Shown: piece by piece, positions 1 through 40,294 of the stretch
Layout of the letters: each line of letters starts with the position of its first letter
How positions within the stretch are numbered: position 1 is the first letter of the stretch
Source: Escherichia phage vB_EcoP-U8
DNA length: 40,294 nucleotides
Sequence record: MT862763.1
Reading direction: 5' to 3' (one strand)
Program-made: the position numbers and the translations under genes
The notes under the pieces: model-generated
Database searches by the model: none
The model's input: the letters and a program-made list of their open reading frames with translations, nothing else
Told to the model about the DNA's origin: nothing

Positions 1-982
1 AGCCTTCGTATGGGTTATCGAAGCAAGGTTCGTTACCACCAATACCGTACGGCGCAAAGATGCCAACCGCAGCAAGCGTGTCATCCTTGACCTTAGCCGT
101 AAACTCGTCCTTCTGCTCCTCGGTCAGACCACAAGCATTAACCACCATGCCATCCTCAAGCAGCACCTCAAAGCCAATCACCTTACCTTCGTTAGCCTTG
201 CCCGGAGTCCCCCACACGAGGCCACATACAGTTCCGTCGATGGTCTCCTCTGGCTTCATTTTCCACATTCCCGACTTCTTGCCACGCTTATATTTACCCA
301 GTGGGTCCTTGACTACCAGACCCTCGTGTCCTTCCAGACGCTTCTGTTCGTACAGGGAGTTGAGCGACTCAAGGTCATAGACCGTGTGTGACTCAGACAG
401 AGCCCAGTCGATTTCCGGGAAGTATTTCTGGAGGAGAGGGACGATAGATTCGGCCTTCAGGCGTGTGACGCTATGGATAGGACCTTCGGCTTTCGGGTCA
501 GCAATGGTTGTCATGTCGATGACACCGTAGACCACAACCTGAAGTCGTGACCGGGATCCCCAGAACGGGAGCTTCTTTCCACCAGTCGCCGGCGAATAGT
601 ATTCAGCGAACTCCTCGTTGTTAGGCTTGAGCCACTTCGTTCGGATGAGACCTGAGGAGGTGTTGAAGTCTACACCTTTGACCATGACCTCGCCATCAAT
701 CATCATGCCCACACCTTCGTAGCCGGATTGACGCAGGAACCATCGCCAGTCAGCTTGGGTCCACGCATTACCTAACTCAGAGTTCATCCACTCCAAGGCT
801 GGTAGAGGTTTCGACTCGCGGCTAAGCCAGTAGGTCTCACCTTCACGCAGGACCAGGAGGTTCAGGCGCACACCATCGTACTTCACTTCAGCTTCCAGAG
901 ACCCGGCTGCTTCCAGTGCCTTCTTAATTCCAGACTCAGAGTAATCTACAGCGCGGTGCGGGTTAGTTTTGATAGTTGTCAT
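1..982 (-). CDS. ATP-dependent DNA ligase (T7 gene 1.3-like), 5' part; runs off window start, C-terminal codons at 40207..40294
   Basis: Own RC translation from ATG at 980-982: MTTIKTNPHRAVDYSESGIKKALEAAGSLEAEVKYDGVRLN... with KYDG adenylation motif and collinear match to T7 ligase as recalled. Absent from the six-frame track because it has no in-window stop. Confidence 0.85.
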   Translation of the reverse strand, partial: MTTIKTNPHRAVDYSESGIKKALEAAGSLEAEVKYDGVRLNLLVLREGETYWLSRESKPLPALEWMNSELGNAWTQADWRWFLRQSGYEGVGMMIDGEVMVKGVDFNTSSGLIRTKWLKPNNEEFAEYYSPATGGKKLPFWGSRSRLQVVVYGVIDMTTIADPKAEGPIHSVTRLKAESIVPLLQKYFPEIDWALSESHTVYDLESLNSLYEQKRLEGHEGLVVKDPLGKYKRGKKSGMWKMKPEETIDGTVCGLVWGTPGKANEGKVIGFEVLLEDGMVVNACGLTEEQKDEFTAKVKDDTLAAVGIFAPYGIGGNEPCFDNPYEG

Positions 983-999
983 CGTTAGTGTCTCCAGAA

Positions 1000-1287
1000 T
1001 TAAAGGAATCGACCAGTGTAGTCGTTGAACTGTTTGTTAAACCAAGTGGCAACCGCTACTGTCTGCACATCTTCGTCGTGGATATTCGGGTACTCCGTGA
1101 AGTCCTTCTCGATGAGGACCTCTCGTGTATGAATGTGGACTATAACCGCCCGGACGCAGTGCCTGTTCATCACCGGGTCAAACCAAGTGCTGACCACTGC
1201 GTTATAGTCGGTCTCGGACTGCCAGTTGTGGATGGCTTTACGCAGGGTGTTCAGGTTTCCACTATGTGCTCTTGAGAACATGCCCAT
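1000..1287 (-). CDS. gp1.2-like protein (dGTPase inhibitor family in T7)
   Basis: 95 aa ORF; SD AGGAG 8 nt upstream of ATG; position and weak similarity (SGNL...HDEDV) to T7 gp1.2. Confidence 0.5.
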   Translation of the reverse strand: MGMFSRAHSGNLNTLRKAIHNWQSETDYNAVVSTWFDPVMNRHCVRAVIVHIHTREVLIEKDFTEYPNIHDEDVQTVAVATWFNKQFNDYTGRFL

Positions 1288-1290
1288 GTC

Positions 1291-1470
1291 TTACGCTCCT
1301 ACGAAATACTTCTCTTGGTTAACCATAGAGTCTTTACCTTCAGCGTTTCTGAAAGCGCCTTTGATACCACCGCCACGCTTGGTCTTGTTCAGCTTGCGGC
1401 CCTTCGGGATGTAACCTTCAGTCTGCTGACGTTCACGGATGCGCTCGAAGTTGATAGTGTTCTGATACAT
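1291..1470 (-). CDS. gp1.1-like small basic protein
   Basis: Own translation MYQNTINFERIRERQQTEGYIPKGRKLNKTKRGGG...; KGRKLNKTKR matches T7 gp1.1 as recalled; below the 60 aa ORF-track cutoff. Confidence 0.45.
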   Translation of the reverse strand: MYQNTINFERIRERQQTEGYIPKGRKLNKTKRGGGIKGAFRNAEGKDSMVNQEKYFVGA

Positions 1471-1503
1471 ACGGTTAAATCTCCAGTAGTGTTTATTTAG
1501 GGT

Positions 1504-1546
1504 TAATCATGAAGGCCACGACTTTGAGTCATGACCTTGAGTCTAA
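1504..1546 (-). promoter_or_regulatory. Conserved leader stem-loop element, copy A (candidate RNase III processing site, R1.1 position)
   Basis: Plus-strand TAATCATGAAGGCCAC...ATGACCTTGAGTCTA; RNA can pair AAGGUCAU with GUGGCCUU; same element at 10689..10726 and 34865..34905. Confidence 0.4.
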
Positions 1547-1566
1547 TCCTATAGTGATAGTTTAGG
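1544..1566 (-). promoter_or_regulatory. Phage RNA polymerase promoter (phi1.1 position)
   Basis: RC reads CTAAACTATCACTATAGGATTA; CACTATAGG core as in T7 promoters; upstream of gene 1.1. Confidence 0.75.
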
Positions 1567-1641
1567 GTTAACCTCTTCTGCGTTGGATTAAAGTGAATAC
1601 TGCGAGTGCTCCCAGCCACAGGGCCAGTAACTGTATGTCTG

Positions 1642-1857
1642 TCATTTGGCCTGCTCCAGCTTGGACACTGCGTCCTTCAGGTACTTCTCGTGGCTGGACT
1701 CGACCAGATATACAAGAGTCTTGAACGGGATGTTAAGCTGCTTGGACATCTCGGTAGGGATGACCGTGGTCTTCACCAGACCCTTGCCGTTGTGTTCTGT
1801 TACGGTCACGATTTGAGTCCCACCATTAACGCCAGTATGCTTGTGTGCAAATTTCAT
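1642..1857 (-). CDS. hypothetical protein (between gene 1 and 1.1)
   Basis: 71 aa ORF with SD AAGGAGAG upstream of ATG. Confidence 0.5.
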   Translation of the reverse strand: MKFAHKHTGVNGGTQIVTVTEHNGKGLVKTTVIPTEMSKQLNIPFKTLVYLVESSHEKYLKDAVSKLEQAK

Positions 1858-1867
1858 AACTCTCTCC

Positions 1868-2098
1868 TTATCTAATTAGAGGGAATGACGGATACTGAAT
1901 GCGCTCGTCTTCCATCCACGCGTTAAGAACTTCATCAATCGAAGCTATAAGGTTGTACTCGTTAGGTTGAATCCACCCAGTCACACCCGACTGTAATCTG
2001 TCTCGGAGAATGATTAAATCCTTATAAGTCAGCTCTACATGGCAACGTCCCGACCCATCGTTGAATACCCTGTTGTGTGCTACAAGTTTCATTGACAT
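1868..2098 (-). CDS. hypothetical protein (between gene 1 and 1.1)
   Basis: 76 aa ORF; SD AGGAG 6 nt upstream of ATG, immediately after RNAP stop. Confidence 0.5.
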   Translation of the reverse strand: MSMKLVAHNRVFNDGSGRCHVELTYKDLIILRDRLQSGVTGWIQPNEYNLIASIDEVLNAWMEDERIQYPSFPLIR

Positions 2099-2113
2099 AT
2101 ACTTCTCCTGTTG

Positions 2114-4795
2114 TTAAGCGAATGCAAAGTCTGAAGACAAGATGTCTTCGATATTCAGTTTACCTTTCTTCGGAAGCTCAGGCAACTTGTCTCTCTGGCT
2201 CTCGTGAAGCTGGTATTCAAACTGCTCGTAGAAGTCAAGCAGCACATCGTTGTCGCGGTAGGTCTCGACCATCGTCTCACGGACTCCACGGAACAGATAC
2301 TCAGCGTCAGCCGGGATGGTCCCGAAGCTATCGTGAATCACTGCGAATGACATCACGCCATATTTGCGGTGCGTGTGTACTACAGTCTTGCGGAGGTGGC
2401 TACCATCTTGTGAGTGGACGAAGTTCGGGCTAATGCCTGACTCCTGCTTGTGCTTGTCCAGCTCTTTCTTCGTGCCTTTGTTGACGGTAGGCTGAAGGTT
2501 GAATGACCCTAAGAACATCAGGTTCAGACGAGTGGTGTCCTTCTTGCGGTATTCCTGCCAGACAGGGAAACCATCAGGTGTGACCCAGTGTACCGGAAGA
2601 CAAGGCTTCAGGATTTCTCCAGTCTTCTTGTCCTTCACTTCAGCAGCAAGCAGCTTGGCAGCACCCTGAAGCCATTTCATCGCGTCAACCGCAGCAACTA
2701 CGGTCACACTCACAGCTTCCCAAATCATCTTAGCCATGAAGCGAGATGCTTGGCTTGGTTCAGTGAACATAGCGCCAGACCCTGAGTCAATCGCTGGCAT
2801 CACGATGTCCTCGTAAACTTGGTCTGCGAAGCCGTACTCTTTCGACCCGTAGGCCAGAGTCATGACCGAACGCTTAGTGACCTTTCGTGACATACCGTAG
2901 GTCAGCCACTGACGGGCAAGCTCTCGTGTCCCCAGCTTGAGACGCTCGGTAATCTCACCAGTTTTCTTGTCCTCGTGAGTTACCATCTCGTTGTCCGTAC
3001 CGTTAACCAGTAGGACTTTAAGCTCCTCCTCAATGCGGTCAGACACGATGCGGTAGATGTCTTGGACCTTACCGGATGGCGTCAGGTTTACTGCATGTCC
3101 ACCGATGTGGTCGCGAAGCATAGCGCTGAAGTGCTGAATCCCAGAGCAGGACCCATCGAACGCTATCGGCAGCGAGCAGGAGTAAGACAAGCCGTGGTGC
3201 ATTACGCCAGCATACTCGAAGCAGAACGCTAGGAAGCAGAACGGAGAGTCTAACTTGCCCCACCACTCAATGCTATCCATCGGTGCCTTGGCAGCAGCCA
3301 TGATGTTGTCGTGGTTATCTTCCACCCACTTGATACGCTCCTCGAAGGTGACTTTATCGACACCCGCGCAGTTTGCACCGTGGACCTTCAGCCATTTGAA
3401 ACCATCAGCACCAATAGGCTTACCGACTGCCAGAGTCAGAAGACCCTTTTGCATGTCGTTACCCTGAGGGTTGAACATCGGCACAGCGTAGACGCGACCG
3501 CGCCAGTCCATGTTATACGGGAACCAGATGGCCTTGAACTGAGAGAACTTGTTCGCTTGGTTGACGATAAAGCTCAGTGACAATCTTCGTGACTGTCTGG
3601 CCTTCTCGCGGCGATAGATACCAGCAGCAGCCTTCTTCCATGCCTTGAGTTCTTCTTCAGTCTCACCCGCATAGTCCTCAGGCTTCAGCGGTTCCATCTG
3701 AGGGATGTCATCAATAGGCGTGTTGTTCAGCTTCTCGACCATGTTCACCACTTCCAGAACCTTCTTGTTCACTTTCCAAGGTGTATTCTGAATGATGTTC
3801 ACAGCGTCATAGACTTCAGGCATATACACGTCTTCGTAGCGTGCTACCGCAGACTTAGACCCTAAGCGAATCAGTGGTAATGGTCTGCGTCCTTTGGCCC
3901 AGTACCCACCGCCTACGACACCAGTCCACGGCTTAGGTGGAACGACGCAAGGCTGGTAGACTGGAGCTATACCCGCAAGGCTGAATCCTCGTTGTGCCAT
4001 CTTCTTGACCCAGAAGTCTGACAGGTGGACCATCTCAACGTCAGCCGCTGCATTGCCAGCACCGTAACGCTTAAGCTCGACCAGTTGTGTGGACTGGATG
4101 ACAATCTCCAGCATCTTGATTCCAACGTGGACAGCCTCGGTCGGACTCCAAGTCCCCCACGCATCTTCCAGTTGGCCTTGCTCCAGCATGGATGCCTCGA
4201 CCGCTTGCATGTAGGCTTTCTTGTAGGACGCCCCGGCCCGCTTATTCAGGTTATCAGCTATCGCCTTCTTGAAGTGCTCTTTCTCCTTGTCACGGATGCG
4301 ACCGAAGCGGATTTCGTCCTCAAGTGTGCGACCTATCGCTGAGGCCATCGGTGTAATCGGTATCCCTTCAGGCTTGACCAGCTTGGAGAGTATGACCTTC
4401 AGTATGATAACCGCAGCAGACTCGCAGGAGATGCGCAAAGAGCGGACCTTTACGGCCTTCTCTTCAGTGCTCAACATGGTGAACGCTACGCTCGGACGAG
4501 AGGTTGACAGCTTCCCGTCTGGACCTTCATGCCACTCCTTGACGGCTTGCGCAATCTTAGGGACCAGAGTCTGCATCAAAGGCTTGGCGACCTGATTGTC
4601 TGCCAGTTCCCCTCGCTCAGTCTGTCTCTCAAGGTTCTTGATGAAACGTCGCTCGCCTTCAGTGTATGCCTCGTGCTCAAGCTGAAGCTGTTTGACTGCA
4701 AGGTCTTGCCCGTAGTGGTCAGCCAGTAGGTTAAACGGCTCAATGGCGTTCGACACATCAGAGAAGTCGTGCTTGTCAATAGAGATGACGCTCAT
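2114..4795 (-). CDS. Single-subunit DNA-directed RNA polymerase (T7 gene 1-like)
   Basis: 893 aa; collinear with T7 RNAP as recalled (MSVISIDKHDFSD..., ...ILSSDFAFA C-terminus, NMDWRGRVYAV, HDSFGT motifs). Confidence 0.97.
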   Translation of the reverse strand: MSVISIDKHDFSDVSNAIEPFNLLADHYGQDLAVKQLQLEHEAYTEGERRFIKNLERQTERGELADNQVAKPLMQTLVPKIAQAVKEWHEGPDGKLSTSRPSVAFTMLSTEEKAVKVRSLRISCESAAVIILKVILSKLVKPEGIPITPMASAIGRTLEDEIRFGRIRDKEKEHFKKAIADNLNKRAGASYKKAYMQAVEASMLEQGQLEDAWGTWSPTEAVHVGIKMLEIVIQSTQLVELKRYGAGNAAADVEMVHLSDFWVKKMAQRGFSLAGIAPVYQPCVVPPKPWTGVVGGGYWAKGRRPLPLIRLGSKSAVARYEDVYMPEVYDAVNIIQNTPWKVNKKVLEVVNMVEKLNNTPIDDIPQMEPLKPEDYAGETEEELKAWKKAAAGIYRREKARQSRRLSLSFIVNQANKFSQFKAIWFPYNMDWRGRVYAVPMFNPQGNDMQKGLLTLAVGKPIGADGFKWLKVHGANCAGVDKVTFEERIKWVEDNHDNIMAAAKAPMDSIEWWGKLDSPFCFLAFCFEYAGVMHHGLSYSCSLPIAFDGSCSGIQHFSAMLRDHIGGHAVNLTPSGKVQDIYRIVSDRIEEELKVLLVNGTDNEMVTHEDKKTGEITERLKLGTRELARQWLTYGMSRKVTKRSVMTLAYGSKEYGFADQVYEDIVMPAIDSGSGAMFTEPSQASRFMAKMIWEAVSVTVVAAVDAMKWLQGAAKLLAAEVKDKKTGEILKPCLPVHWVTPDGFPVWQEYRKKDTTRLNLMFLGSFNLQPTVNKGTKKELDKHKQESGISPNFVHSQDGSHLRKTVVHTHRKYGVMSFAVIHDSFGTIPADAEYLFRGVRETMVETYRDNDVLLDFYEQFEYQLHESQRDKLPELPKKGKLNIEDILSSDFAFA

Positions 4796-4864
4796 ACTTA
4801 AAGTCCTTGTTATTAGTCTTTCACTTAAAGTCTCTTTGGTCTTTCACTTGGAGTCTTAGACCTT

Positions 4865-5636: not shown

Positions 5637-5792
5637 TTACTTATCCTCAGCGTGCAAACTGTCGTGTATGCGCTTGCGGCCCTCATAGACCGCTTTCAGG
5701 TGACGCATAGTCGCATCGTGGTTTAATTGCCCGGTCTTGACCATAAGCCGGGCGTTAGTGACGTGGTGCTGGCAGAGACCATAAGTTACCAT
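5637..5792 (-). CDS. hypothetical early protein
   Basis: ATG at 5790-5792 overlaps kinase stop (AGATGGTAA), suggesting translational coupling; 51 aa. Confidence 0.3.
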   Translation of the reverse strand: MVTYGLCQHHVTNARLMVKTGQLNHDATMRHLKAVYEGRKRIHDSLHAEDK

Positions 5793-6310
5793 CTTGATGA
5801 CCTCACCTCTTGCAGCTTGGACACAAGGAAGAAACAATCAACCAGTATCAACTTGCCATCCACAACCCGTACATTACGTGGGCTTATCTCAAACTGAATG
5901 TCTGACCCGAAGTTAGCGCAAGCGTCCAGCGCCATCATAACATCCATCAGGCCCTCCCGCACAGTCTCAGACTCAGACCTGTCGTGTGCATCTTGGAATA
6001 TCTCGTACCACTTGTGATACAGTTCGGCAGGTCGAGAGAATACCGGAGACCGTGAGAAGCAGTCTCGCAACACCTGATAGAGTTGCCATTGGTCATCGTC
6101 TAAATGCGCCTTGAGACCTCGTGTTGGTGGCATGTATTCCATCTCATATGTGCCTACCTCAATCATTTTGACTTCAGGGAACAGTGGAGACTCAGGGAAC
6201 CATCCCCACGCCATACACTCCTTGATTGGGTCTGAAGATACCAGAATCACACGCTTCCCGCAGTCCTTCAGGTAACACTTAGTGAATGCGCCTTTTCCGA
6301 TCAGTTTCAT
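5786..6310 (-). CDS. putative protein kinase, gp0.7-like but short (kinase domain only)
   Basis: 174 aa; N-terminal IGKGAFTKCY glycine-rich loop and VDGKLILVDCFF resemble T7 gp0.7 kinase region; SD AAAGGA 8 nt upstream. Confidence 0.45.
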   Translation of the reverse strand: MKLIGKGAFTKCYLKDCGKRVILVSSDPIKECMAWGWFPESPLFPEVKMIEVGTYEMEYMPPTRGLKAHLDDDQWQLYQVLRDCFSRSPVFSRPAELYHKWYEIFQDAHDRSESETVREGLMDVMMALDACANFGSDIQFEISPRNVRVVDGKLILVDCFFLVSKLQEVRSSRW

Positions 6311-6380
6311 CTTGTTTATCCTTTAGTTAGTGACTATCAGTCAGGCCGCTATCAGTCTAACGACCTGTAGTTAATCACTC

Positions 6381-6635
6381 TCAGTTAGCGAAATAAGGAG
6401 CTGAGACGCCCACTGTAGGACTCACGGTTATCTGCGAGTCTATCAGGTATGTCTCGTTGTCTATACGCACAGTATCGACGCTGTAGTTGCTGAACTGCTT
6501 GCTTGATACCTTGCGCACTACCACACGGTGACGCGCTCCTGTCATCTCTTTAAGCTGAATCCACGCATAACCTTTAGTGTTCACGAATACTTCATTGCGA
6601 TTAGTGATTGTGCTTAAGTGTTTCATAGTGTCCAT
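6381..6635 (-). CDS. hypothetical first early protein (gene 0.3 position; not Ocr-like)
   Basis: 84 aa ORF; start may be the Met at codon 4 (better SD spacing). Confidence 0.45.
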   Translation of the reverse strand: MDTMKHLSTITNRNEVFVNTKGYAWIQLKEMTGARHRVVVRKVSSKQFSNYSVDTVRIDNETYLIDSQITVSPTVGVSAPYFAN

Positions 6636-6804
6636 CCTTTAAGTTAGTGACTATCAGTCAGGGCCTTCAGATGTAGACTCAAAGGCCCTGTAGTTAGTCG
6701 CTATCGGCGCACATTAAGAGTTTATCCAGATTGTTAAAGAGCATTCCCTTCAGTCAGAGGACTTCAGGTAGACCGTTTCAGTGTCGGTCGTCACCGTTGT
6801 TTCG

Positions 6805-6843
6805 ATGTGGTACAGCTTACATCTTATCGTTACTGCTTGTCAA
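6805..6843 (-). promoter_or_regulatory. Candidate host sigma70 early promoter (T7 A2/A3-like architecture)
   Basis: RC reads TTGACA-N18-TAAGCT-GTACCACATCGAAAC, resembling T7 A3 (TTGACA...TACGAT GTACCACATGAAAC) as recalled. Confidence 0.4.
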
Positions 6844-7104
6844 CTACTTTCTGTCATCTGCCTGTTGTTCGTATGACTTATCAGGCTGTCTACTTAACCG
6901 GGATGACCAGGCGTCTTCACTATCCGGTTGTTGCCGTGTCGTGTTGACGGAAGCTATTAGGCCATAGTCTGGACCTATAGTCAATAGGTAATTTTAAATA
7001 ATATTGATTAAGCTATCGTCGGCCCCATGGTGTAAGAGGATGTAGTCTTTGACTAACATGTCTTAGACCTTAAGTCTATATCCTTGTGTCTATTAACGTA
7101 GGTC

Positions 7105-7185
7105 TCTGACTGTAGGTAGCGGCATTACCGATGGTCGATGACTGTAGGTAGTTAGACTGTAAGTAGTTAGACTGTAGGTAGTGAC
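7105..7185. repeat. Short tandem/direct repeats (GACTGTAGGTAG x4, last three at 15-bp period) in genome-end region
   Basis: Copies at 7108, 7140, 7155 (one mismatch), 7170; lies between gene 19 and the early promoters, where T7 carries terminal-repeat and CCTAAAG-type repeats. Confidence 0.6.
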
Positions 7186-7618
7186 TCAAGGTCTGATACA
7201 GATAGAGACTCAAAGAAGACCAATAGTCCCTACCTATCGTCTTTCCCTAAGCCATAGCCACAACCTATCGTTGACCTGAAGTCTTGACCATCGGTCTAAC
7301 CTTATGATAGACTGGGGTAGGGCCTTTGGTCTGGACTAAAAGAGGGCCTATGGGGAGACTTGAGGTTCTTGAACTGTGAGATGTGGTCTCAAACTTTTGG
7401 TCCAAAACTCATCGTCACTACTGTAGACCACAGCCACTGTAGGTCAATGACCGTAGGTCAGGCGACACTAGGATAGACCAATAAGTAGGATGACCCTAAG
7501 TGAGCTTCTCTTAAGGTGTTACCTAAAGTCCTTGACTACAGTAGCTAAGGTCAGTAGAGTAGCGTCAGCTATGAACTGACCTTAGGTCTTGCTTTCGTTG
7601 ATTGTTACCATTACGGCG

Positions 7619-7777
7619 TTAACGACACTCAGACACCAGAGAACATACGAGAGTCTCGACCCACCCGACCCACTGACTTCCAGCAGTAACGCCAGCAGCA
7701 AGTAGAACAGCAGCAAGAAACCTGTATGTAGCTCGATTGGTCGCCAGAGCTTTAAGTACAGCTTTGGTCTTTGCCAT
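7619..7777 (-). CDS. small hydrophobic ORF (gene 19.5 position)
   Basis: About 52 aa, MAKTKAVLKALATNRATYRFLAAVLLAAGVTAG...; SD AGGAGG 10 nt upstream; downstream of phiOR-like promoter. Confidence 0.3.
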   Translation of the reverse strand: MAKTKAVLKALATNRATYRFLAAVLLAAGVTAGSQWVGWVETLVCSLVSECR

Positions 7778-7957
7778 ATGCTACATACCTCCTGTATCTA
7801 TGGTCGGTGACTATCTGTATTGGAGGGATTATGATTAATATCACCCTCCTTCCATCGGTGCAAGCCTTAGGTAAGAACTCGGAGTCTGCCTCCTAAGGTC
7901 TTGCATAAAGTCTGCATATGTATATTCACTACAGTAATACTATAAGTAACCGGGGGT

Positions 7958-7980
7958 CTTCCCTATAGTGATAGTTAAGT
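7958..7980 (-). promoter_or_regulatory. Phage RNA polymerase promoter (phiOR position, after gene 19)
   Basis: Plus strand CCTATAGTGATAGTTAAG at 7962..7979. Confidence 0.7.
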
Positions 7981-8074
7981 CCAAACTCCTTGTAAAACAG
8001 TAGGTTAGACTGGTAGTAACTATAGGTTACTAACTGCGTATTCATGCAGCTTTCACCTATAGTTATTCATTCAG

Positions 8075-9838
8075 CTAGTGGAACGTAACGTAGTGCCCTA
8101 GTCCAAGCTCGTCGTCCGTATCGTGAGTTACCCGGACCCCATTGTCCCAGAACTCAGTGTGGATGGACTCGAAGCCTTTCCGTGGGTTCTCCATCTGTTC
8201 CTCCAGCCACTCCTCAGTGACTTCACGTTCTCCTTTGTTGGCATCCTTAGCCATAGACTCAACGAAGAACTGTACACCGATAGCCAGCGCATCAAGTCGG
8301 TCATCGTGTGCCAAGGCCCCACGTTCACGAGAGATACGGGTCATCTGATAGAAGAGAGAGTAGATAGGGTTACGAACACCATCCTTGTCAGAGGCTGTCT
8401 GGTAGTCTTGGACGATAGCAGCAGCGTTGACGATAAGTCGGTGAGACCCCATGATAGGCTCCAGAACGTCACAGATGCGGAGTTCTTTCTGACCCTTACT
8501 CTTCACTTCAGTTACAGCCGCAGGATGGATACGGGCCGCTACAGGCTTGAATAACTCAAGGTACATACCATCACCGAAGTTACCCTCAATGACGTATTCG
8601 TTGACCTTCCACTTACGACCAATCTTAGCCAAGGCTTCCAGAGTAGAGTCTTCATAACCACCACGCATACCGCCTACTTCCATAGCGAAGATGTAGCCGT
8701 TGAGCTGATACAGTACCGCATAGCCAGTTTCATCCTTACCACGACCACTAGGGTCAATGACCAGAATCTTCTGGGTGTACGAGCTGAAGGCAGAACCTAC
8801 AGTCTGATACGTGTGGTATGAGTCACCCATGAGTCCAACGTTAGGGACGTCCTCACGCTTGTTCTGAGGGTTAGGCAACCATTGGTAGACCATTGGACTA
8901 GACGCTGGGTCCAAGTCCGCTACGATAAGGTCACGGAGCTTCAGAGGGTACTTCTCAGCATCACTCAGGTTCGGGTTAAGCATGAACTGTAGAGCGAAGC
9001 CAGCTTTACCATAGGACAGCTCACGTTCCTTCAGGTCCGTATCATCGAATCGTACCTCATCGGTCGGACGCCAGTAGAAGGACTCAGGGTCCTCTTCCAG
9101 TTCTGCCTGAAGCATAGGAGCCAGACGGTCGCCGTAAGACTGCCAGTCCTTCCTGTCGCGTGGGTAACGAGCAGGCCAGATAGTAGTGGTGTACCCACGA
9201 CCTTCCAACTCACGGTACAGGGTCATCTCGTTCTGAGGAGTACCCAGATAAATGATTGTGCCTCCCGGCTTCAGGATAGCGTCGAACTCTTTCACAAGCT
9301 CTGACAGACGGTCTCGTGCAGCCTGAGTCGCAGAGTTATTAGGAACCTCCACGTCATCTGCAATCAGGATGTCAGCACGACTACCAGTCAACTGACCAGT
9401 GATACCAACAGACTTAACCGAAGGTGAGTGGTCTGGCTTGGCTGGCCCAACGTCGAAGCTAATAACAGCATCTCGCTGTCCCTGCTTAGGTTTGAGTTCC
9501 TGAAGCTGAGGCATGAGGTCGATGATTCGCTTGATGAATATGGAGTTAGCATCGGCTCGTTCCTTTGAGGCCGACACAATCATGAACTTCAAGTCTGGGT
9601 TGTTCCATAGTTTCCAGACCACGAATGCACACGTAATGAATGACTTCCCGATACCACGGAACGCCTGAAGGATGAAACGCCTGTTGTCCCCAGCCGATAG
9701 TTTCTTCGCCATGTCAATCTGACAGCGAGTCGGGACTGGGAGCGACAGAGCTTTCCACAGGACGAACAGGAAGAACACGAAGTCGGCCTTCATACGTGCC
9801 GTCATAAGCGCCTGACGCGCCGCTAAGTCTTGACTCAA
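8075..9838 (-). CDS. Terminase large subunit (T7 gp19-like DNA maturase B)
   Basis: 587 aa; collinear with T7 gp19 as recalled ([18 protein letters not shown] Walker A region, [19 protein letters not shown]). Confidence 0.95.
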
Positions 9839-10302: not shown

Positions 10303-10674
10303 TCAGAATCGACGTACAAGCGTCTTCTCTAGGTATGAAACAGCCCGCTGGACACTAGATGTAGTATCTCCCAGTGCGCCAATTGCTGCATTGCACTTGC
10401 GGCATAAAACCCCTCTAATCACCCCAGTGGAATGACAGTGGTCAATACACGCAGAGTCTGTATCTCCTTTCTTCCCACCTACTTTAAGCGGAGTCTTGCA
10501 AATCTCGCATGAGCTTCCCACCGAGTGCATCAGGTCCTCGAACTGTTCAAGCGTGAGACCATATAGGCTCTTTATCTGCGAAATGCGCTTAGTCCTCTTT
10601 CTTCGTTCCTCCCGTTCCTCTCGTAATTTACGAGCAGCTTGAACGTTAGCCTTTATAACATCTTCCGATACCAT
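10303..10674 (-). CDS. Endonuclease VII-family protein (putative homing endonuclease) between gene 18 and 18.5
   Basis: CEICK...IDHCHSTGVIRGVLCRKCN, the Cys/His pattern of T4 endo VII-type proteins; SD AGGAGGTGGT before ATG. Confidence 0.75.
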   Translation of the reverse strand: MVSEDVIKANVQAARKLREEREERRKRTKRISQIKSLYGLTLEQFEDLMHSVGSSCEICKTPLKVGGKKGDTDSACIDHCHSTGVIRGVLCRKCNAAIGALGDTTSSVQRAVSYLEKTLVRRF

Positions 10675-17100: not shown

Positions 17101-18060
17101 GTATGTCAGAGGGTCCACGCCAGCACCAATAACACCAGCAGCTAACTGAGCGCCAGTCCCAGCCTTGGCCTTCTCTTGGTCCAACTTCTGGTTCTCAATC
17201 GCCAAGTTAATAAGCTCAGTCAGGTTCTGAGGGGAGCCACCAGTAATGACTCCGTAATACTGAGGCAGAACCCCAGCGTTACGAATCTGGTCCAGCTCCT
17301 CACGAGACCACTTATGGTTGTTCCATCGCGTCGGGTTGAACACATCGCCAATGACATCCAGTGAGTCCTCAGTCTGACCAGCTCTGATAGCCACGCCGAC
17401 CATAGAGTTCTTCACTTCAGCTTCTGTAGCCGCACCGAAACCGAACCACGTAGAGCGATCCTCTCGTTCCTGCATGGTCTCGCCAGTAGCCTTATAGAAC
17501 ATCTCACCGAACGATTCGTTGGGAGCTTCAGGTGCTTGACCCTCAATGTTCATACCAGCAGCGGTCGGAAGGTTCTCACCCAGAGCTACTTTAGGTTTAT
17601 CCTTGAGTCCTTCCGTGAGTGCGTCAAATACGTTAGCGCTTACTGGTGGAGTCTTTGGGCTAATGCCATTGAGTGCTCGTGCGACTCCCTTCTGATAGAC
17701 TTCAGGGTCGTACCGGGAGCCTGTCTCATGGAAGCTGATAGCTTGAGCCAGAGAAGACAGGGTGTCAGGGTCCGATAGGTCGAGACTCTGGGTCGCCGGG
17801 ATGCCCGTAGCCGAAGCCACTGACTGAATGTACGCCTGAGTGTCGTTCTCGTTCGGAGGTGCCCAACGGTTGATAATCTTCTCGATAGAGTCATAACCTT
17901 GGCGACCGTAGCTTTGAAGGTTTTTAGCTAAGGCTCGGACCCCAGATTCAGGACTATCGAAGATAACGAACGCACCATCATCACCTATAGCACCTTCCCA
18001 TTGGTCTTTGGACTTACGGAGGTTCCCGGGGTTTGAATTCCTTACTCCACGTGTCGCCAT
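14173..18060 (-). CDS. Internal virion protein D (gp16-like) with non-canonical N-terminal domain
   Basis: 1295 aa; long collinear match to T7 gp16 from about residue 250 onward (ENPAMFG, GTYVPHVY, AYNRRVNGDIAIMG); N-terminal ~120 aa does not match the T7 transglycosylase motif. Confidence 0.9.
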   Translation of the reverse strand: MATRGVRNSNPGNLRKSKDQWEGAIGDDGAFVIFDSPESGVRALAKNLQSYGRQGYDSIEKIINRWAPPNENDTQAYIQSVASATGIPATQSLDLSDPDTLSSLAQAISFHETGSRYDPEVYQKGVARALNGISPKTPPVSANVFDALTEGLKDKPKVALGENLPTAAGMNIEGQAPEAPNESFGEMFYKATGETMQEREDRSTWFGFGAATEAEVKNSMVGVAIRAGQTEDSLDVIGDVFNPTRWNNHKWSREELDQIRNAGVLPQYYGVITGGSPQNLTELINLAIENQKLDQEKAKAGTGAQLAAGVIGAGVDPLTYVPIAGQVGKGAKLVNKMFTVAAQSGALAGVSEMARTSVAGGDAHVAEAILGGALFGGGMTAIADGLGRALGRNTNEFAGPATRLEARETARNVDGQDLSRLPIQEGEQTFSHQGVKFADVPNEPGSVRLEDGSILIGENPLNPKTRQVFDEVIEPERAAAGVNLGGLTEIGLKLLRSENPEIRGVAADLVRSPTGMQSGASGKIGTTASDVFERLRSVDHRFYNDIDDAVTEALKDPYFQTAFWRDSGAFRQDIYQRVSMAIEDGSGNLKAELTPGELKVYDLLKNQFDAKREMMENPAMFGRPDAQSIFPGSRFKGTYVPHVYSKQMKELYIKELGSPEALQEAIKKSWLTSYASRPEVKKRVDEALLEADPTLTPEGLAAAVDKYANDKAYGISHTEQFERSSVMEENINGLVGLENNSFLEARNLFDSDMSIVLPNGQTFSVNNLREWDMDKIVPAYNRRVNGDIAIMAGTGKTTKDMKDLVETMMNKAGDDGKLKGEVSTLRDTLKILTGRARRDGADDAAFATVMRTMTDLSFFAKNAYMGVQNLTEIGGMLARGNVRALLHGVPMFRDLAFRNKKVGASEIKDLHNVIFGKELDDSIRPSKQDVIDRLRSYSDLGSGTATALGTAKYYTGELAVRSPFTKVLNGTTNYLLDAGRQGFLSDIVEHSLTGSKRKFDDRWLKTAGISDEQWKGIKSLIRESVTRGPDGKYTIKDKKAFSQDPRAMDLWRMGDTIADETLLRPHKLSNMDAKAYGPLAKTVLQFKNFVIKSINGRTMRTFYNATKNNRAIDAALSTVMSMGLAGIYYMAQAHVKAYAMQDGRDRDYLKQALDPTMIGYAALSRSSHLGGPLGVANILGGIAGYEDTKMLRSSILPRSPTEKPERAIAYGAATSDPVMNVVGNFLEQVPAFGYAANVGASAYNLAGYLKADTRVNERDYMTGMYNTFRELVPNDPITQKLLLGTFEEQGIHIKD

Positions 18061-18491
18061 GTCTTTCTCCTCAAGATATTTCTAATAGAAACCGTACTCA
18101 CTCCATAGCGTTCAGCCAAGAGTGAAACCTTTAGGTCGCTGGACCTTATATCACGCACACTTTCCTCAGTGAGCTTAGACGAGCCTACGAAGCATCCTAA
18201 CGCTTGGCGACCTCTAGTCACCTTATCCTTTATGTTATCAGCTTGGGTGCCAACTTCAAGGTGGCTTGGGTCTATACAGGACGGGTTGTCGCACTTATGG
18301 CGAACAACGTACCCATCCGGTATAGGACCGTTAGCAAGCTCGTAAGCAAGTCTATGCGCTCTGTATTTGACCCTGTTGACCATTATCCTTCCATATCCTT
18401 CTCCGTCTAAGTGGCCTGTAAATCGGATACAGCCAGACTCTTCAGCTACTGACAGTTCTGCCAGTCTCTCACTGGCTGTCCCGTTCTTCAT
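18042..18491 (-). CDS. HNH homing endonuclease-like protein between gene 15 and 16
   Basis: GYVVRHKCDNPSCIDPSHLEVGTQADN HNH motif; 149 aa; not present at this position in T7. Confidence 0.8.
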   Translation of the reverse strand: MKNGTASERLAELSVAEESGCIRFTGHLDGEGYGRIMVNRVKYRAHRLAYELANGPIPDGYVVRHKCDNPSCIDPSHLEVGTQADNIKDKVTRGRQALGCFVGSSKLTEESVRDIRSSDLKVSLLAERYGVSTVSIRNILRRKTWRHVE

Positions 18492-21378: not shown

Positions 21379-21765
21379 CTAATCCCCCTTCCGGCTTGTA
21401 GCCAGATAGTCAGCAGCCTTACCATCGAAATCTTCGCATTTAGAGTGGTAGTTTCTACGGGTCAGCTTTAGGTTGCAGGTATGACATAGGATTCCTCGGA
21501 CTTTCCCGGAGGTGTGACAGTGGTCAACGCATACTCCTCGGCTAGTTCCTAATGTCTTGCAGATTGCGCAGACCCCGCCCTGCTCTTTTAGGATGGAATC
21601 ATATTCTATCTGCGTAATGTGATACGTCTCGTATCCCTTGTTCTTGTGGCTCCGTCCATTATGACACAGCTTACAGGCAGAGCGTACACCACACTTAGAG
21701 TCTTTCCGTGTAGAGAACGCTTCTAGTGGCTTTTCAATTTTACAGACGGTACAGACCTTAGTCAC
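21379..21765 (-). CDS. Endonuclease VII-family protein (putative homing endonuclease) between gene 13 and 14
   Basis: GGVCAICK...[19 protein letters not shown]; GTG start with SD AAGGAGG; start overlaps gp13 stop. Confidence 0.78.
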
Positions 21766-32080: not shown

Positions 32081-32370
32081 TGCTTGACCTCGAATCGCAG
32101 GTTAGATACTCCGAACTGGTCATAACCAAAGTCGTCTACCAGCTCCTCCTTGATGGTCTTCTTGAGGGCAATTTCAAGGGCAGACTCAGGGCCTGACTCG
32201 ATTGCGGTTTTGACCAGAGCCAACTGAAGACCATCCAGCTTCTCACCCTCAGCGTAGGCTTTAGTCATCTCAGCCAGTTGGCGACACATGGTATCTTCTT
32301 CCTTTGAGTTAACAACCATCTTCAGATCAAAACTCACACGAATACGTTTAGTAATAGCCATTAGTGACAC
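32077..32370 (-). CDS. gp5.5-like protein (H-NS-binding protein family in T7)
   Basis: ATG at 32368-32370 with SD AAGAAGGAG; MAITKRIRVSFDL...EVKQ resembles T7 gp5.5 as recalled. Confidence 0.8.
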   Translation of the reverse strand: MSLMAITKRIRVSFDLKMVVNSKEEDTMCRQLAEMTKAYAEGEKLDGLQLALVKTAIESGPESALEIALKKTIKEELVDDFGYDQFGVSNLRFEVKQ

Positions 32371-32786
32371 TCCTTCTTAACAAGTTTGCGCTCACGGTTC
32401 GTCTTAATGACGTGTTCGCGTTTTGGAATACACTGTAGATGCTCTATGTTGCAGCACCCACGGTTCAAGCACAAATGGTCTATTTCGTAGCCATTTGGTA
32501 TAGGTCCGCGCCTCTGCTCCCACACCCATCGGTGGAACATGAAGGCGAACTTGTTGCCCTTCCTGTAGCTTCCCATGGAGTACCGGAAGTACCCATCTTG
32601 GTTCCTCTTGTGGGACACGCAGACGATACATCCGGTAGGCATGGTGTGGAAGCGTAGGGTCTGGGTTCGAGGGTCAATGACACTCTTTCCACGTTGGTCC
32701 AATCTTACCCTCCGTATCAAGTTCACACTTGAAGTTATAGAAGCGTCCGACCTCGCGCATCGCCTCTTGAGCAATACGGACGACAT
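32361..32786 (-). CDS. HNH homing endonuclease-like protein overlapping the 3' end of the DNA polymerase gene
   Basis: HRWVWEQRRGPIPNGYEIDHLCLNRGCCNIEHLQ HNH motif; ATG at 32786 has SD GGAG, overlapping pol by 113 nt in another frame; an internal Met at 32642 has no SD. Confidence 0.75.
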   Translation of the reverse strand: MSSVLLKRRCARSDASITSSVNLIRRVRLDQRGKSVIDPRTQTLRFHTMPTGCIVCVSHKRNQDGYFRYSMGSYRKGNKFAFMFHRWVWEQRRGPIPNGYEIDHLCLNRGCCNIEHLQCIPKREHVIKTNRERKLVKKECH

Positions 32787-35073: not shown

Positions 35074-36831
<1,758 letters not shown>

Positions 36832-36842
36832 TCACTCCTTAG

Positions 36843-36921
36843 TGGCGTCTCCACGGGGATTCGAACCCTAATCGCAATAGGCCATCACGACCCGCCGCTC
36901 TACCGTTTGAGCTATGGAGAC
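36843..36921 (-). tRNA. tRNA-like gene (anticodon arm atypical; possible anticodon CGU)
   Basis: RC: GTCTCCA TA GCTC AAACGGTA GAGC ... TAGGG TTCGAAT CCCCG TGGAGAC G CCA; perfect 7-bp acceptor stem, U8, canonical D-arm, T-loop and CCA; anticodon stem imperfect and region 3 nt longer than standard. Confidence 0.6.
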
Positions 36922-36966
36922 ATTTCTTAATCTCAAATGCGAACAAAGGGACAAGACTCGTGGTCT

Positions 36967-36989
36967 CATCCCTAAGGTGATAGTTTAGC
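36967..36989 (-). promoter_or_regulatory. Variant phage promoter upstream of tRNA-like gene and gene 4
   Basis: CCTAAGGTGATAGTTTAG at 36971..36988 (RC CTAAACTATCACCTTAGG, two changes at -4/-3). Confidence 0.55.
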
Positions 36990-37197: not shown

Positions 37198-37211
37198 GTT
37201 AATTCTCCTTA

Positions 37212-37670
37212 TTAGCCTCGGTCGGAAGTGACCAGTTCGTTAGTGTTAAGCCAGCGCTGCAAGTCGAAACTTGGGCAAGCCTTTGGTGCTACATCGTGGT
37301 GAGCCTTGATTTCTGCCTGAGGATACAAGTCCTTCAGGTCAGCCAGCTTGTTGCGCAGGGAGTTCATCTGGGCTGGAGTGAAGTTAGCTTCAAACTTGCC
37401 CTTAGCGTCAATTCCACCTACAAGGCAGACGCCTACAGACCGTGAGTTCCAGTCCTTAACGTGTGACCCTACGACATTGACAGGGCGTCCCTCTTCCACA
37501 GTACCATCGCGCTTGATGATAAAGTGGTAGCCTACGTCCAGCCAGCCTTGCTGCTTGTGCCACATACGGATGGTCTCTACCCCGATGTCCATCTCTGGCT
37601 TGGTTGCGCTACAGTGAACGAAGATAGCGTCAGTCCGGGACCGTGGGTTGAACTGAACCTTACTCACCAT
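37212..37670 (-). CDS. N-acetylmuramoyl-L-alanine amidase / T7 lysozyme (gp3.5-like)
   Basis: 152 aa; AIFVHCSATKP, WLDVGYHFIIKRDGTVEEGR, PKACPSFDL match T7 lysozyme as recalled. Confidence 0.95.
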   Translation of the reverse strand: MVSKVQFNPRSRTDAIFVHCSATKPEMDIGVETIRMWHKQQGWLDVGYHFIIKRDGTVEEGRPVNVVGSHVKDWNSRSVGVCLVGGIDAKGKFEANFTPAQMNSLRNKLADLKDLYPQAEIKAHHDVAPKACPSFDLQRWLNTNELVTSDRG

Positions 37671-37887
37671 CGTACACCACCAGCTCTACAGCTACGAGGT
37701 TCAGATGACGTTGGAAGCGGTTAGCATCCGTGGTGTGCATCTGGAGCAACTTATGGTTGAAGACGTGAGAGTTACTAATCTTCACGTACACTTCACCCGG
37801 CTTACCGTGAACGATAAACGCATAGCCTACCGGGATTTTATCAATGGTCAGACGCTTACGAACGACCTTAACTTCTTGAGTCATCAC
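37660..37887 (-). CDS. hypothetical protein between gene 3 and 3.5
   Basis: 75 aa ORF tightly packed between endonuclease I and amidase. Confidence 0.45.
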   Translation of the reverse strand: MMTQEVKVVRKRLTIDKIPVGYAFIVHGKPGEVYVKISNSHVFNHKLLQMHTTDANRFQRHLNLVAVELVVYDGE

Positions 37888-38336
37888 TTAACTCCTTTCT
37901 TCTTGGGGATGAGTATACCTGAAGGCAGACGTACAGTCGCCTCTCGCAGCCACTCAACCGGGATGAACTTATCGGCATACTTATAGCCGTTCTTTTCGCA
38001 CCATGCGCCATACGTGGTCGGAGACCCTTTGTATAGCTTGGAGCGTGAACTTGAGAACACGAACCGGATGTCTAACTCTGGGTGCTGTTCTCGTACCAGA
38101 AGGTGCTTCTTACGGTCATCACTATCGAAGATACCTTTGGTCTCCACGATGATACCGTTGGGAAGGATAAAATCTGGTGTGTACTTGTGGTCGGAAGCCG
38201 GAATCACATAGTTGATATAATGGCTTTCGTACTCCGCTTTGACGCCGTTCTGTTCCAGCCACTGCTGGTTCTTGGCTTCAAGTCCAGAGCGGTAGGCACC
38301 CACAGAGTGCCCCCGTTTTGCAGACCATTGGGCCAT
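37884..38336 (-). CDS. Endonuclease I (gp3-like Holliday junction resolvase)
   Basis: 150 aa; YTPDFILPNGIIVETKG, DDRKKHLLVREQHPELDIRFVFSSS match T7 gp3 as recalled. Confidence 0.95.
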   Translation of the reverse strand: MAQWSAKRGHSVGAYRSGLEAKNQQWLEQNGVKAEYESHYINYVIPASDHKYTPDFILPNGIIVETKGIFDSDDRKKHLLVREQHPELDIRFVFSSSRSKLYKGSPTTYGAWCEKNGYKYADKFIPVEWLREATVRLPSGILIPKKKGVK

Positions 38337-39034
38337 TAGAAGTCGTAATCGCCACCAGGGTTGGAGTCGTCACCACCTTCGGAACCATCGTCACCGAAGT
38401 CATCACCACCGAAGTCACCAACGGTTGACGCTTTGTAGCCAGTACCAAGGTCTTCATCATCACCCCAGCCACCATCGCCACCAGCACCATCGCCTTTCCA
38501 CTCCTTCAGTTCTACCAGAAGGCAGGACTCAAGCTGGAGCTTAACGCTTGCACCAGTCGCAGCGTTCCACTTGAACGGCAGGACTTTAAACTTGACCTTC
38601 AGCTTAGACCCAGCGCAGATATTCGGGACGTCACGGATGAGTTTAGCATCGGTGTCGTAGAACCGTAATACGATAGGCTCGGACTTGCCGTCTTTCAGGT
38701 AAGACGCAAAGCATTTAAACTTAAGGGTAACAGTACCGTCACCATTCTCAATCCACGGCATGTCGCCTTCTCGTGGTTCAATAGGCTTCTTGCCACGCTG
38801 AACCTGAGGTGGGTTCTTCTCGTGGTCTGCGAGTGCTTTTGCATACGCATCGTCGTGAATCTTCTGTAAGACATCAATCATCTTACGGACCTTATGGTTG
38901 CTCAGGTCGAATGTCAGGTTAACCTTATGCTCACCACGCTCGTTAAACTTGGTGTCTGCTTTGTTCAGCCATGCGTAAGGCTCAACGATACCAGCTACCG
39001 GAGTGGTGAAAGTCTTCAGTTGCTCTTTAGCCAT
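38336..39034 (-). CDS. Single-stranded DNA-binding protein (gp2.5-like)
   Basis: 232 aa; matches T7 gp2.5 as recalled incl. acidic C-terminus ending DF. Confidence 0.95.
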   Translation of the reverse strand: MAKEQLKTFTTPVAGIVEPYAWLNKADTKFNERGEHKVNLTFDLSNHKVRKMIDVLQKIHDDAYAKALADHEKNPPQVQRGKKPIEPREGDMPWIENGDGTVTLKFKCFASYLKDGKSEPIVLRFYDTDAKLIRDVPNICAGSKLKVKFKVLPFKWNAATGASVKLQLESCLLVELKEWKGDGAGGDGGWGDDEDLGTGYKASTVGDFGGDDFGDDGSEGGDDSNPGGDYDF

Positions 39035-39074
39035 CGGTGTAAATCTCCTAATTTAAAAGTTACTAACTGGACGT

Positions 39075-39097
39075 CTGTCCTACAGTGATAGTTTAGG
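39075..39097 (-). promoter_or_regulatory. Phage promoter (phi2.5 position), one-base variant
   Basis: CCTACAGTGATAGTTTAG at 39079..39096; overlaps gp2 stop. Confidence 0.65.
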
Positions 39098-39251
39098 TCT
39101 CAGGGCGAATCCGTCCGACCACAAACCCAGCGTCCTCATACTCTTGGGACTTCAGGGTAGCCTCTTCAAGAGACTTTGCGTACAACGGAACCTCGAAGGA
39201 CTGAACGTGACCCTCAAGCTCCACGATGTATTTCTTTTCTTCAAGGCTCAT
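39093..39251 (-). CDS. gp2-like host RNA polymerase inhibitor
   Basis: [14 protein letters not shown]...[10 protein letters not shown] resembles T7 gp2; start set at Met with AGGAG SD (ORF track extends to 39314). Confidence 0.7.
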
Positions 39252-39329
39252 AGCCCTTTCTCCTTCCACATATGGTACATGGACAGGTAGTCCACATTCC
39301 CGGTTGAGACCCACTGTCTAAAACACCAA

Positions 39330-39668
39330 CTACTTGGAGTCATAGCACTTACCTTTGTGCAGGTCGAATAGCTCCTGATAGAAGGCTGCTTTGTTCAAGT
39401 CCTTCTCCATAGTAGCCATCTCGGACTTCTTACCAGCCCGGAGTCTATACTTCAGGACGTTACCCATGCAGAACCCACGGAACTCACTCACAGTCATTGA
39501 CCGTGCGATAATCTCAATGGATTCCACGCCATCAAAGACCTTATAGTGGGACGGCTTGCGGACGCCATCAATTTCTTGTAGTTTGTTACCTACAAGTTTA
39601 CCAACGTGCGGGAAGCGGTCGTCACCATTACATGCTTCACAGTATGTGGTGCTATCACAGTATGTCAT
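39330..39668 (-). CDS. gp1.7-like nucleotide kinase (short form)
   Basis: KPSHYKVFDGVESIEIIARSMTVSEFRGFCMGNVLKYRLRAGKKSE matches C-terminal part of T7 gp1.7 as recalled; 112 aa vs 196 in T7. Confidence 0.75.
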   Translation of the reverse strand: MTYCDSTTYCEACNGDDRFPHVGKLVGNKLQEIDGVRKPSHYKVFDGVESIEIIARSMTVSEFRGFCMGNVLKYRLRAGKKSEMATMEKDLNKAAFYQELFDLHKGKCYDSK

Positions 39669-39922
39669 CAGAGCGCCTCCTTAATTACCAGAAGTGCCAG
39701 CTTAATGCGAGGCCATTTTGTAATGACCACAGGCACATCAACTTGTTCTTTATCCATAGCCTTCAGCATAGACTTGCGGGTGACTAGCGCATGAACTGCT
39801 GGAGACAGAGCCACTGTCTTACCAAAGCGTGGTAATGGTTGATTAGCTTTATGGAAGCTGAATGGGCTATGCGACAGGTGGAAGCTTCGAGTAAATCGGT
39901 TGAACATTAAGTTTTTAGACAT
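39668..39922 (-). CDS. gp1.6-like protein
   Basis: 84 aa; weak resemblance to T7 gp1.6 and position. Confidence 0.45.
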   Translation of the reverse strand: MSKNLMFNRFTRSFHLSHSPFSFHKANQPLPRFGKTVALSPAVHALVTRKSMLKAMDKEQVDVPVVITKWPRIKLALLVIKEAL

Positions 39923-39947
39923 AAGGTTTCTCCTTTGGTCGGTTAGG

Positions 39948-39970
39948 GTTGTCCTATAGTGATAGCTTAG
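39948..39970 (-). promoter_or_regulatory. Phage promoter (phi1.5/1.6 position), one-base variant
   Basis: CCTATAGTGATAGCTTAGG at 39952..39970. Confidence 0.65.
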
Positions 39971-39986
39971 GGTCTAGCTGGTGGCC

Positions 39987-40023
39987 CAGAAGCAAAGAAA
40001 CCCAGCAGTCCTAAGACCACTGG
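39987..40023 (-). terminator. Candidate rho-independent terminator (early terminator TE equivalent)
   Basis: RC: CCCAGTGGTC-TTAG-GACTGCTGGG (10-bp stem incl. two G-U) followed by TTTCTTTGCTTCT. Confidence 0.5.
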
Positions 40024-40030
40024 GTTGACG

Positions 40031-40210
40031 TTAACGCATCTTAAAGTTGTTCACCTTAGCAGCCTTACGGTAGCGATGACTCATGGTTGATATTGTCTCT
40101 TCATCGTAGTAGGACTTGGCCCACTTCTTGAGTTTACGATACCACAGCTCGCCATTTACCACAGCGTAGAGTTGACCACTTGCTATGTTGATATAAAGTT
40201 GTGTACTCAT
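40031..40210 (-). CDS. hypothetical small basic protein (gene 1.4/1.5 position)
   Basis: ATG at 40208-40210 overlaps ligase stop (TCATGA); MSTQLYINIASGQLYAVVNGELWYRKLKKW... Confidence 0.45.
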   Translation of the reverse strand: MSTQLYINIASGQLYAVVNGELWYRKLKKWAKSYYDEETISTMSHRYRKAAKVNNFKMR

Positions 40211-40294
40211 GACTTCACCGTGGGGTTGTCTTCGGTTCCACGCCAGCACTTGAAGCTGGGGTGACGAAGGGAGCCATCAGGGAACCGCTCCATT
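40207..40294 (-). CDS. DNA ligase C-terminal fragment (continuation of the gene at 1..982)
   Basis: RC translation MERFPDGSLRHPSFKCWRGTEDNPTVKS* matches T7 ligase C-terminus (MEETPDGSLRHPSFVMFRGTEDNP) as recalled. Confidence 0.8.
   Translation of the reverse strand, partial: MERFPDGSLRHPSFKCWRGTEDNPTVKS

Follow-up and report, generated by a model that had tools for sequence, protein, structure and literature searches.

The Escherichia phage vB_EcoP-U8 record is very probably a Kayfunavirus genome opened within its DNA ligase gene

T7-like phages carry their own single-subunit RNA polymerase, which is the hallmark of the family; in T7 biology, the same repeat stands at both ends of the virion DNA, and replicative concatemers keep one copy per junction. 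The repeat is 160 bp long in T7, as confirmed from its record (NC_001604). For K1F (NC_007456), the type member of the genus Kayfunavirus, the two ends of the record carry an exact repeat of 178 bp, and the record of phage Peacock (MK903279) annotates a direct terminal repeat (DTR) of 179 bp, predicted by PhageTerm. The K1F DTR is given as 179 bp in the literature cited by PMC4925675, and run-off sequencing of K1F-like Citrobacter phages placed their DTRs at 183–190 bp (PMC4925675). Here we describe the sequence record MT862763.1 of Escherichia phage vB_EcoP-U8, analyzed over its full length of 40,294 nucleotides (the window), in which the DNA ligase gene, the homologue of T7 gene 1.3, is divided between the two ends, while the sequence homologous to the K1F and Peacock terminal repeats lies internally and in one copy. 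Our reading is that the window very probably represents one Kayfunavirus genome unit, written as its reverse complement and opened at an arbitrary point in the ligase gene, with 19 nt lost there as an assembly artifact.

The 5′ part of the ligase opens with the ATG at 982, preceded 8–9 nt upstream by GGAG, and runs off position 1 as ...FDNPYEG followed by a single T. A preliminary description of the window had given this start and this end (...DNPYEG) and had placed the remainder of the gene at the other end of the window; both coordinates were confirmed by translation. Within the 5′ part, the Pfam domain DNA_ligase_A_M (E = 3e-22) spans residues 18–243, and DNA_ligase_C (E = 5.8e-27) spans residues 244–327, halting at position 84 of the 109 positions of the profile. 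The 3′ fragment by itself matches positions 92–109 of the same profile, and it also aligns with the 3′ ends of the ligases of relatives. The distance between profile positions 84 and 92 leaves exactly seven residues missing, in agreement with the roughly seven residues estimated at the outset. With these residues restored, the DNA_ligase_C match covers positions 1–109 of 109, and its score increases from 94.3 bits (profile positions 1–84) to 133.9 bits. The KxDG motif is present as KYDG (...EAEVKYDGVR...), and the rebuilt protein shows the domains expected of an ATP-dependent ligase of the T7 gp1.3 type, namely an adenylation domain with this motif and, after it, a C-terminal OB-fold domain. 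Over residues 1–299, the 5′ part is 82% identical to K1F gp1.3. The profile matches and the alignments with relatives show that the two fragments are parts of one gene.

At the nucleotide level, no terminal overlap between the window ends was found, and joining them directly generated GGC TAA, a stop codon immediately after Gly-327. With the partial-codon base on each flank taken into account, the seven missing residues amount to 19 nt, and adding 19 nt in an end-to-start join restored the ligase frame. In MZ234024, MZ234009, MZ234021, and OZ035813, exactly 19 nt separate the positions to which the window ends map; a shortfall of about 20 nt had been proposed, and the value was 19 nt in every close relative examined. 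K1F likewise has 19 nt at the position of the gap. When a 619-nt junction was rebuilt with the 19 nt of MZ234024, it gave one ungapped alignment of 617–619 nt at 94–96% identity in 18 Kayfunavirus records. Six relatives, among them the more distant SFP21B, have the same 19-nt filler, GGCAGTGTGAAGTCCTCTT. Position 40294, next to the gap, is A on the minus strand, as compared with C in all seven aligned relatives; this A may be a contig-end error or a Phe-to-Leu variant (TTC to TTA) in the split codon.

Gene order at the junction is that of T7 and K1F (1, 1.1/1.2, and 1.3, then 1.6, 1.7, 1.8, 2, 2.5, 3, 3.5, 4 ... 19), so that the T7-like order proposed for this region was borne out, both by tblastn with K1F and by the annotations of relatives. 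The best match for the segment from gene 1.3 to gene 2.5 is Peacock, at 97.5% identity. Citrobacter phage SH5 and a Logan contig, both with different ligases, encode a protein identical to the gp1.2 of the window.

The terminal repeat was located by homology to K1F and Peacock. Base 1 of K1F and base 1 of Peacock both align to window position 7381, from which the minus strand reads TCTCACAGTT... (TCTCACAGTTCAAG...); the first nine bases, TCTCACAGT, match the left end of T7 exactly. The last base of Peacock, in whose record the right copy is not duplicated, aligns to 7382. At the right boundary of the repeat, the last base of K1F aligns to 7205. This boundary reads ...GAGTCTC/T/ATCTGTATCAG in the window (slashes mark the boundary), homologous to ...GTGTCCCT/ATCTGTTACAG in T7, with ...CT/ATCTGT.ACAG in common. 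Across the repeat, the window is identical to Peacock at 174 of 179 positions and to K1F at 168 of 179. Self-BLAST of the window found no second copy of the repeat and no other long repeat. Because the K1F and Peacock termini fall at 7381 and 7204/7205 and only a single copy is present, the repeat is collapsed in the window, a state shared by concatemer junctions and circularized assemblies. From this homology, the left end is predicted at 7381 and the right end at 7205 (K1F-type) or 7204 (Peacock/T7-type), with an uncertainty of ∼2 nt on the right, and the mature genome is predicted to measure 40,294 + 19 + 177 = ∼40,490 bp. The true ends had been expected somewhere in the repeat-rich region 6990..7960, and both predicted positions lie within it. 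The preliminary description had also called the genome circularly permuted; this holds for the assembly but not for the virion DNA, which should be linear, with fixed ends and a DTR. The enzyme expected to cut concatemers at the repeat would be the gene 19 terminase.

The contexts of the two repeat boundaries, 7199..7215 and 7378..7394, resemble each other. Read on the minus strand as CTTTGAGTCTCTATCTG and GTTTGAGACCACATCTC, they stand 179 nt apart and are identical at 13 of 17 positions, and T7 has a comparable ...T(A)TCT context at both of its repeat boundaries. The likeness may reflect the context in which the terminase cuts.

The identity of the whole genome was established by comparison with 50,697 phage records, in which megablast retrieved hundreds of Autographiviridae, the best matches being Escherichia Kayfunavirus records of the K1F group (92–97% identity). 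The minus strand carries all long open reading frames (ORFs) of the window. A tblastn search with the K1F proteins located 0.6, 1, 1.3, 1.6, 1.7, 1.8, 2, 2.5, 3, 3.5, 4, 5.5, 5.7, 6, 6.5, 6.7, 7, 7.3, and 8 through 19 colinear on this strand; this full K1F gene set in K1F order substantiated the earlier view of a near-complete T7-like genome. The RNA polymerase, portal, terminase, gp15, and gp16 are 96–99% identical to those of K1F by tblastn. The scan for a promoter-like motif, TATCACTATAGG, gave 12 matches, all of them on the minus strand, as compared with 0.75 expected. The minus-strand genes in K1F order, together with promoters on one strand, indicate that the window is a T7-like genome written as its reverse complement. 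It possesses its own RNA polymerase and has its genes on one strand in T7 order, as in Autographiviridae and Studiervirinae. The data support assigning the window to the genus Kayfunavirus (K1F group), as the all but complete genome of a lytic T7-like coliphage. The features observed are not due to chance, since the window shares 93–97% DNA identity with the sequenced genomes of many Kayfunavirus members.

How a split ligase could arise in such a record follows from the packaging of T7-like DNA. Genomes lying head to tail in replicating DNA would share one copy of the repeat, through which reads from either end or from a concatemer junction would overlap. An assembler would then close the circle with a single repeat copy and linearize it at any point, here within gene 1.3, losing 19 nt (most probably GGCAGTGTGAAGTCCTCTT) at the break. 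The window has the properties of such a permuted assembly, as its ends lie 19 nt apart in 18 close relatives and the repeat is internal and present once. Many other Kayfunavirus records in the databases show the same kind of permutation, with the ligase gene found anywhere from ∼4.5 kb to ∼37 kb of the record; coordinates within the genus are therefore not comparable without rotation. The record of MZ234024 (MZ234024.1) starts inside gene 16, that of vB_Eco_ZCEC02 (PV833354.1) starts in the early region, and that of LI10P1 is permuted as well. We infer that both the break and the loss of 19 nt arose in assembly and that the virion ends of this phage lie at the predicted positions.

Several points weigh against this reading. 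The ends of a clean circle were not found: there is no overlap, and 19 nt are absent at the junction, so the assembly is an almost-closed circle rather than a closed one. Circular de Bruijn assembly normally leaves overlapping ends, not a gap such as the one seen here. The deviation of position 40294 from all relatives suggests a poor contig end, although a real variant is possible. The predicted termini of this phage are placed by homology, with the right boundary uncertain by the ∼2 nt already given. Moreover, a source contig with an intact junction was not found: no identical sequence was retrieved with 37–39-mers of the window ends from IMG/VR, with a gapped junction pattern and a 37-mer from metagenome contigs, or with a 37-mer from GTDB genomes, and none was found in E. 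coli genomes or plasmids.

Three other explanations for the split gene were weighed. The gap could exceed 19 nt and represent a real insertion in gene 1.3 that went unassembled or varies in the population, for instance a segment that differs between strains or a cassette with a homing endonuclease or an intron. The window does carry four free-standing endonuclease genes at sites that are empty or different in K1F or MZ234024, and gene 5 of K1F contains an HNH element. Position 40294, at the edge of the gap, also differs from all relatives, and cleanly circular assemblies do not usually end in a gap where an overlap is expected. Yet none of the 18 close relatives has an insertion at this point, the flanks are in frame with a Pfam profile that fits exactly seven missing residues, and neither window end holds partial foreign sequence, all of which make an insertion very unlikely. 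The converse, that the 19 nt are truly absent from a closed 40,294-bp circle whose ligase is truncated after ...DNPYEG by the stop created at the join, is in our judgment highly improbable. It requires a deletion that lies precisely where the contig was arbitrarily opened and that occurs in no relative (n = 18), and it leaves 28 downstream codons intact, conserved, and without further damage. In its favor are the TAA directly following Gly-327 on direct joining and the general knowledge that the ligase of T7 (gene 1.3) is dispensable on ligase-proficient hosts.

That the window ends are instead genuine molecular ends, whether of a headful-packaged, truly permuted genome or of a prophage or host-flanked fragment, has nothing in its favor beyond the linearity of the contig, and we give it next to no credence. 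The ends cut a conserved gene, whereas a T7-type terminase is encoded and the conserved repeat sequence, with its T7-like nonamer, is internal; it is because these conserved T7-type end sequences sit inside the window that a truly permuted, headful-packaged genome is unlikely. For the host-flanked form, positions 1..3000 gave no megablast match in 5,426 complete E. coli genomes or in plasmids, no integrase is present in the gene set of the window, and relatives cover the window except for known variable cassettes, leaving no host DNA. The host-flanked or prophage reading was rejected on the grounds that host DNA and an integrase are both lacking. The preliminary description had named unrelated ligase fragments or a contig bounded by host DNA as observations that would overturn it, and neither was encountered. 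An arbitrarily opened assembly of one genome unit remains the explanation that we favor, and under it the split ligase is a routine assembly artifact, not new biology. For annotation, the record should be rotated to 7381 on the minus strand, given a second repeat copy, and have its 19 nt restored or resequenced; annotators should not call two ligase fragments or a ligase pseudogene. The coordinates of all features are given in Table 1.

Table 1. Positions of ligase fragments, predicted repeat, and other features in the 40,294-nt window
Feature	Position	Strand	Basis or remarks
Ligase 5′ part (T7 gene 1.3 homologue), 327 codons and first base (T) of codon 328	1..982	-	Translation, Pfam
Ligase 3′ part, 28 codons MERFPDGSLRHPSFKCWRGTEDNPTVKS and stop at 40293..40207; 40294 is the last base of the split codon	40207..40294	-	Pfam, relatives
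Gene 1.2 homologue (95 aa), directly upstream of ligase	1000..1287	-	Pfam T7-like_gp12 recorded for identical protein
Small ORF overlapping ligase stop, then 1.6, 1.7, 1.8, 2, and 2.5 homologues	38336..40249	-	K1F tblastn, annotations of relatives
Predicted DTR, one collapsed copy (177–178 bp)	7204..7381	-	Homology to K1F and Peacock
Short-repeat array just inside left end, ACCTACAGTC-like units	7085..7203	-	TRF, repeat families D1–D3, motif scan
Short-repeat region before terminal repeat, right end of unique sequence, downstream of 19.5	7382..7590	-	Motif matches at 7435, 7449, 7521, 7578
Gene 19.5 homologue (52 aa), last gene before right end	7619..7777	-	ORF; relatives
Single-subunit RNA polymerase (gene 1), 893 aa	2114..4795	-	99.4% identical to K1F gp1 over 893 residues
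Terminase large subunit (gene 19)	8075..9838	-	99.3% identical to K1F gp19, 575 residues, window 9805..8078
Promoter-like sites (n = 12)	1546, 4867, 7960, 14157, 22252, 26128, 27034, 28022, 30861, 36969, 39077, 39951	-	Motif scan
Promoter-like site TATCACTATAGGGA, downstream of terminase gene	7960..7973	-	One of the 12 motif matches
174-aa ORF (phrog_11084) at gene 0.3 (Ocr) position	5786..6310	-	Position compared with relatives
tRNA-like element	36843..36921	-	ARAGORN tRNA-Thr, anticodon CGT; Rfam tRNA 36.7 bits (threshold 29)
HNH_3 endonuclease gene, between genes 15 and 16	18042..18491	-	Free-standing
HNH_3 endonuclease gene, after gene 5	32361..32786	-	Free-standing
Endonuclease VII-like gene, between genes 13 and 14	21379..21765	-	Free-standing
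Endonuclease VII-like gene, between genes 18 and 18.5	10303..10674	-	Free-standing
Tailspike, 951 aa	11253..14108	-	T7-type N-terminal adaptor; Peptidase_S74 (endosialidase-type) chaperone C terminus

Short repeats are concentrated around the predicted DTR. Units resembling ACCTACAGTC are ∼10-fold enriched there, with 17 of 130 matches falling within 615 bp (6973..7587) on both sides of the repeat. The array inside the left end, which includes a 15-nt tandem array found by TRF at 7140..7182, is the positional equivalent of the CCTAAAG repeats that follow the terminal repeat of T7, and the region on the other side aligns colinearly with K1F, LM33_P1, and Peacock at their right ends. The interval 6990..7960 is non-coding except for the gene 19.5 homologue and a few short ORFs that have no support. 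Relatives annotate a 159-nt coding sequence at the gene 19.5 position, which carries the label “Gp19.5 family” in vB_Eco_ZCEC02. Scanning of 6300..8100 for sigma-70 promoters and terminators gave 5 sites as compared with 3.0 ± 1.3 in shuffled sequences, a number not above the shuffles.

Comparison with individual phages showed different relatives to be closest in different modules, which makes the genome a mosaic. K1F has the same gene content and order, with identities of 99.6% for portal and 98.8% for gp15 in addition to the values in Table 1, and both of its ends map inside the window within a homologous terminal repeat. It differs in the positions of its homing endonucleases, which occupy sites other than those of the window, and in its ligase, the identity of which reaches only the 82% given above. 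The closest whole genomes found were MZ234024 (vB_EcoP-101136BS1), PV833354 (vB_Eco_ZCEC02), and OZ035801 (LI10P1), with 89–92% coverage at 93–95% identity; MZ234024 has the same type of ligase as the window, with the 19-nt stretch intact, and ZCEC02 and LI10P1 have the same tailspike at 95.6–96.1% identity. The DTR of Peacock starts at the same base as that of the window, but its early region downstream of the repeat differs, and its record was opened at the physical left end rather than inside the ligase gene. T7 shares with the window transcription from one strand by a phage RNA polymerase, the gene order, and a repeat flanked by short-repeat arrays, as well as the nonamer TCTCACAGT. It belongs to another genus, however, with a repeat of 160 bp rather than ∼178 bp, a promoter consensus different from TATCACTATAGG, and a tail fiber that is not a tailspike.

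Intergenomic similarity was taken as coverage multiplied by identity and was calculated for the four closest candidates. The value for K1F was 77.6% (83.6% coverage at 92.8% identity), for MZ234024 84.8%, and for ZCEC02 and LI10P1 85.5% each. Genus membership requires a genome-wide nucleotide similarity of ∼70% or more, and the species line is commonly drawn at 95%. All four values, 77.6% to K1F and 85–86% to the other three, are thus above the genus threshold, and the best of them (85.5%) is below the species line. By these sequence comparisons, the genome is probably that of a new mosaic Kayfunavirus, below the 95% species line with respect to the four candidates compared. The phage is one further mosaic in a genus that is already well sampled and is used in phage-therapy work, and it raises no new biological question.

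Among the accessory genes, the 174-aa ORF at the position of gene 0.3 (Ocr) matched no Pfam family and had no meaningful sequence match in the PDB. No BLASTP match was found to the Ocr of K1F, MZ234024, or ZCEC02 or to gp3 of LM33_P1, and K1F gene 0.3 gave no tblastn match anywhere in the window. The ORF is a candidate alternative early or anti-defense gene.

To our knowledge, T7-like phages normally carry no tRNA genes. The sole evidence for the tRNA-like element in the window is its detection by two programs, ARAGORN and Rfam. It has a normal acceptor stem, D arm, and T loop and an encoded CCA, together with an over-long, irregular anticodon arm. Its folding energy was indistinguishable from that of shuffled sequences (z = −1.1), which neither supports nor rules out a structure. 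The element is located between the promoter-like site at 36969..36982 and the beginning of gene 4. Neither K1F nor MZ234024 has it; in many other Kayfunavirus records it is 95–100% identical and is labeled inconsistently, as tRNA-Thr, tRNA-OTHER, or tRNA-Pseudo, or is left unannotated. The element may represent a pseudo-tRNA or a signal for mRNA processing.

Three of the four endonuclease genes (18042..18491, 21379..21765, and 10303..10674) are situated in segments without a nucleotide match in K1F or MZ234024. The tailspike has the N-terminal adaptor and the C-terminal chaperone domain in common with that of K1F, whereas its central part is unlike the K1F endosialidase. About 2.3 kb of the tailspike gene shares 91.7% DNA identity with genes of unrelated phages, namely those with 47.7-kb genomes (HC6, 6947, and ST1UNAM) and the 72.9-kb PBM-3, a likeness that points to recent exchange of a receptor-binding module across phage families.

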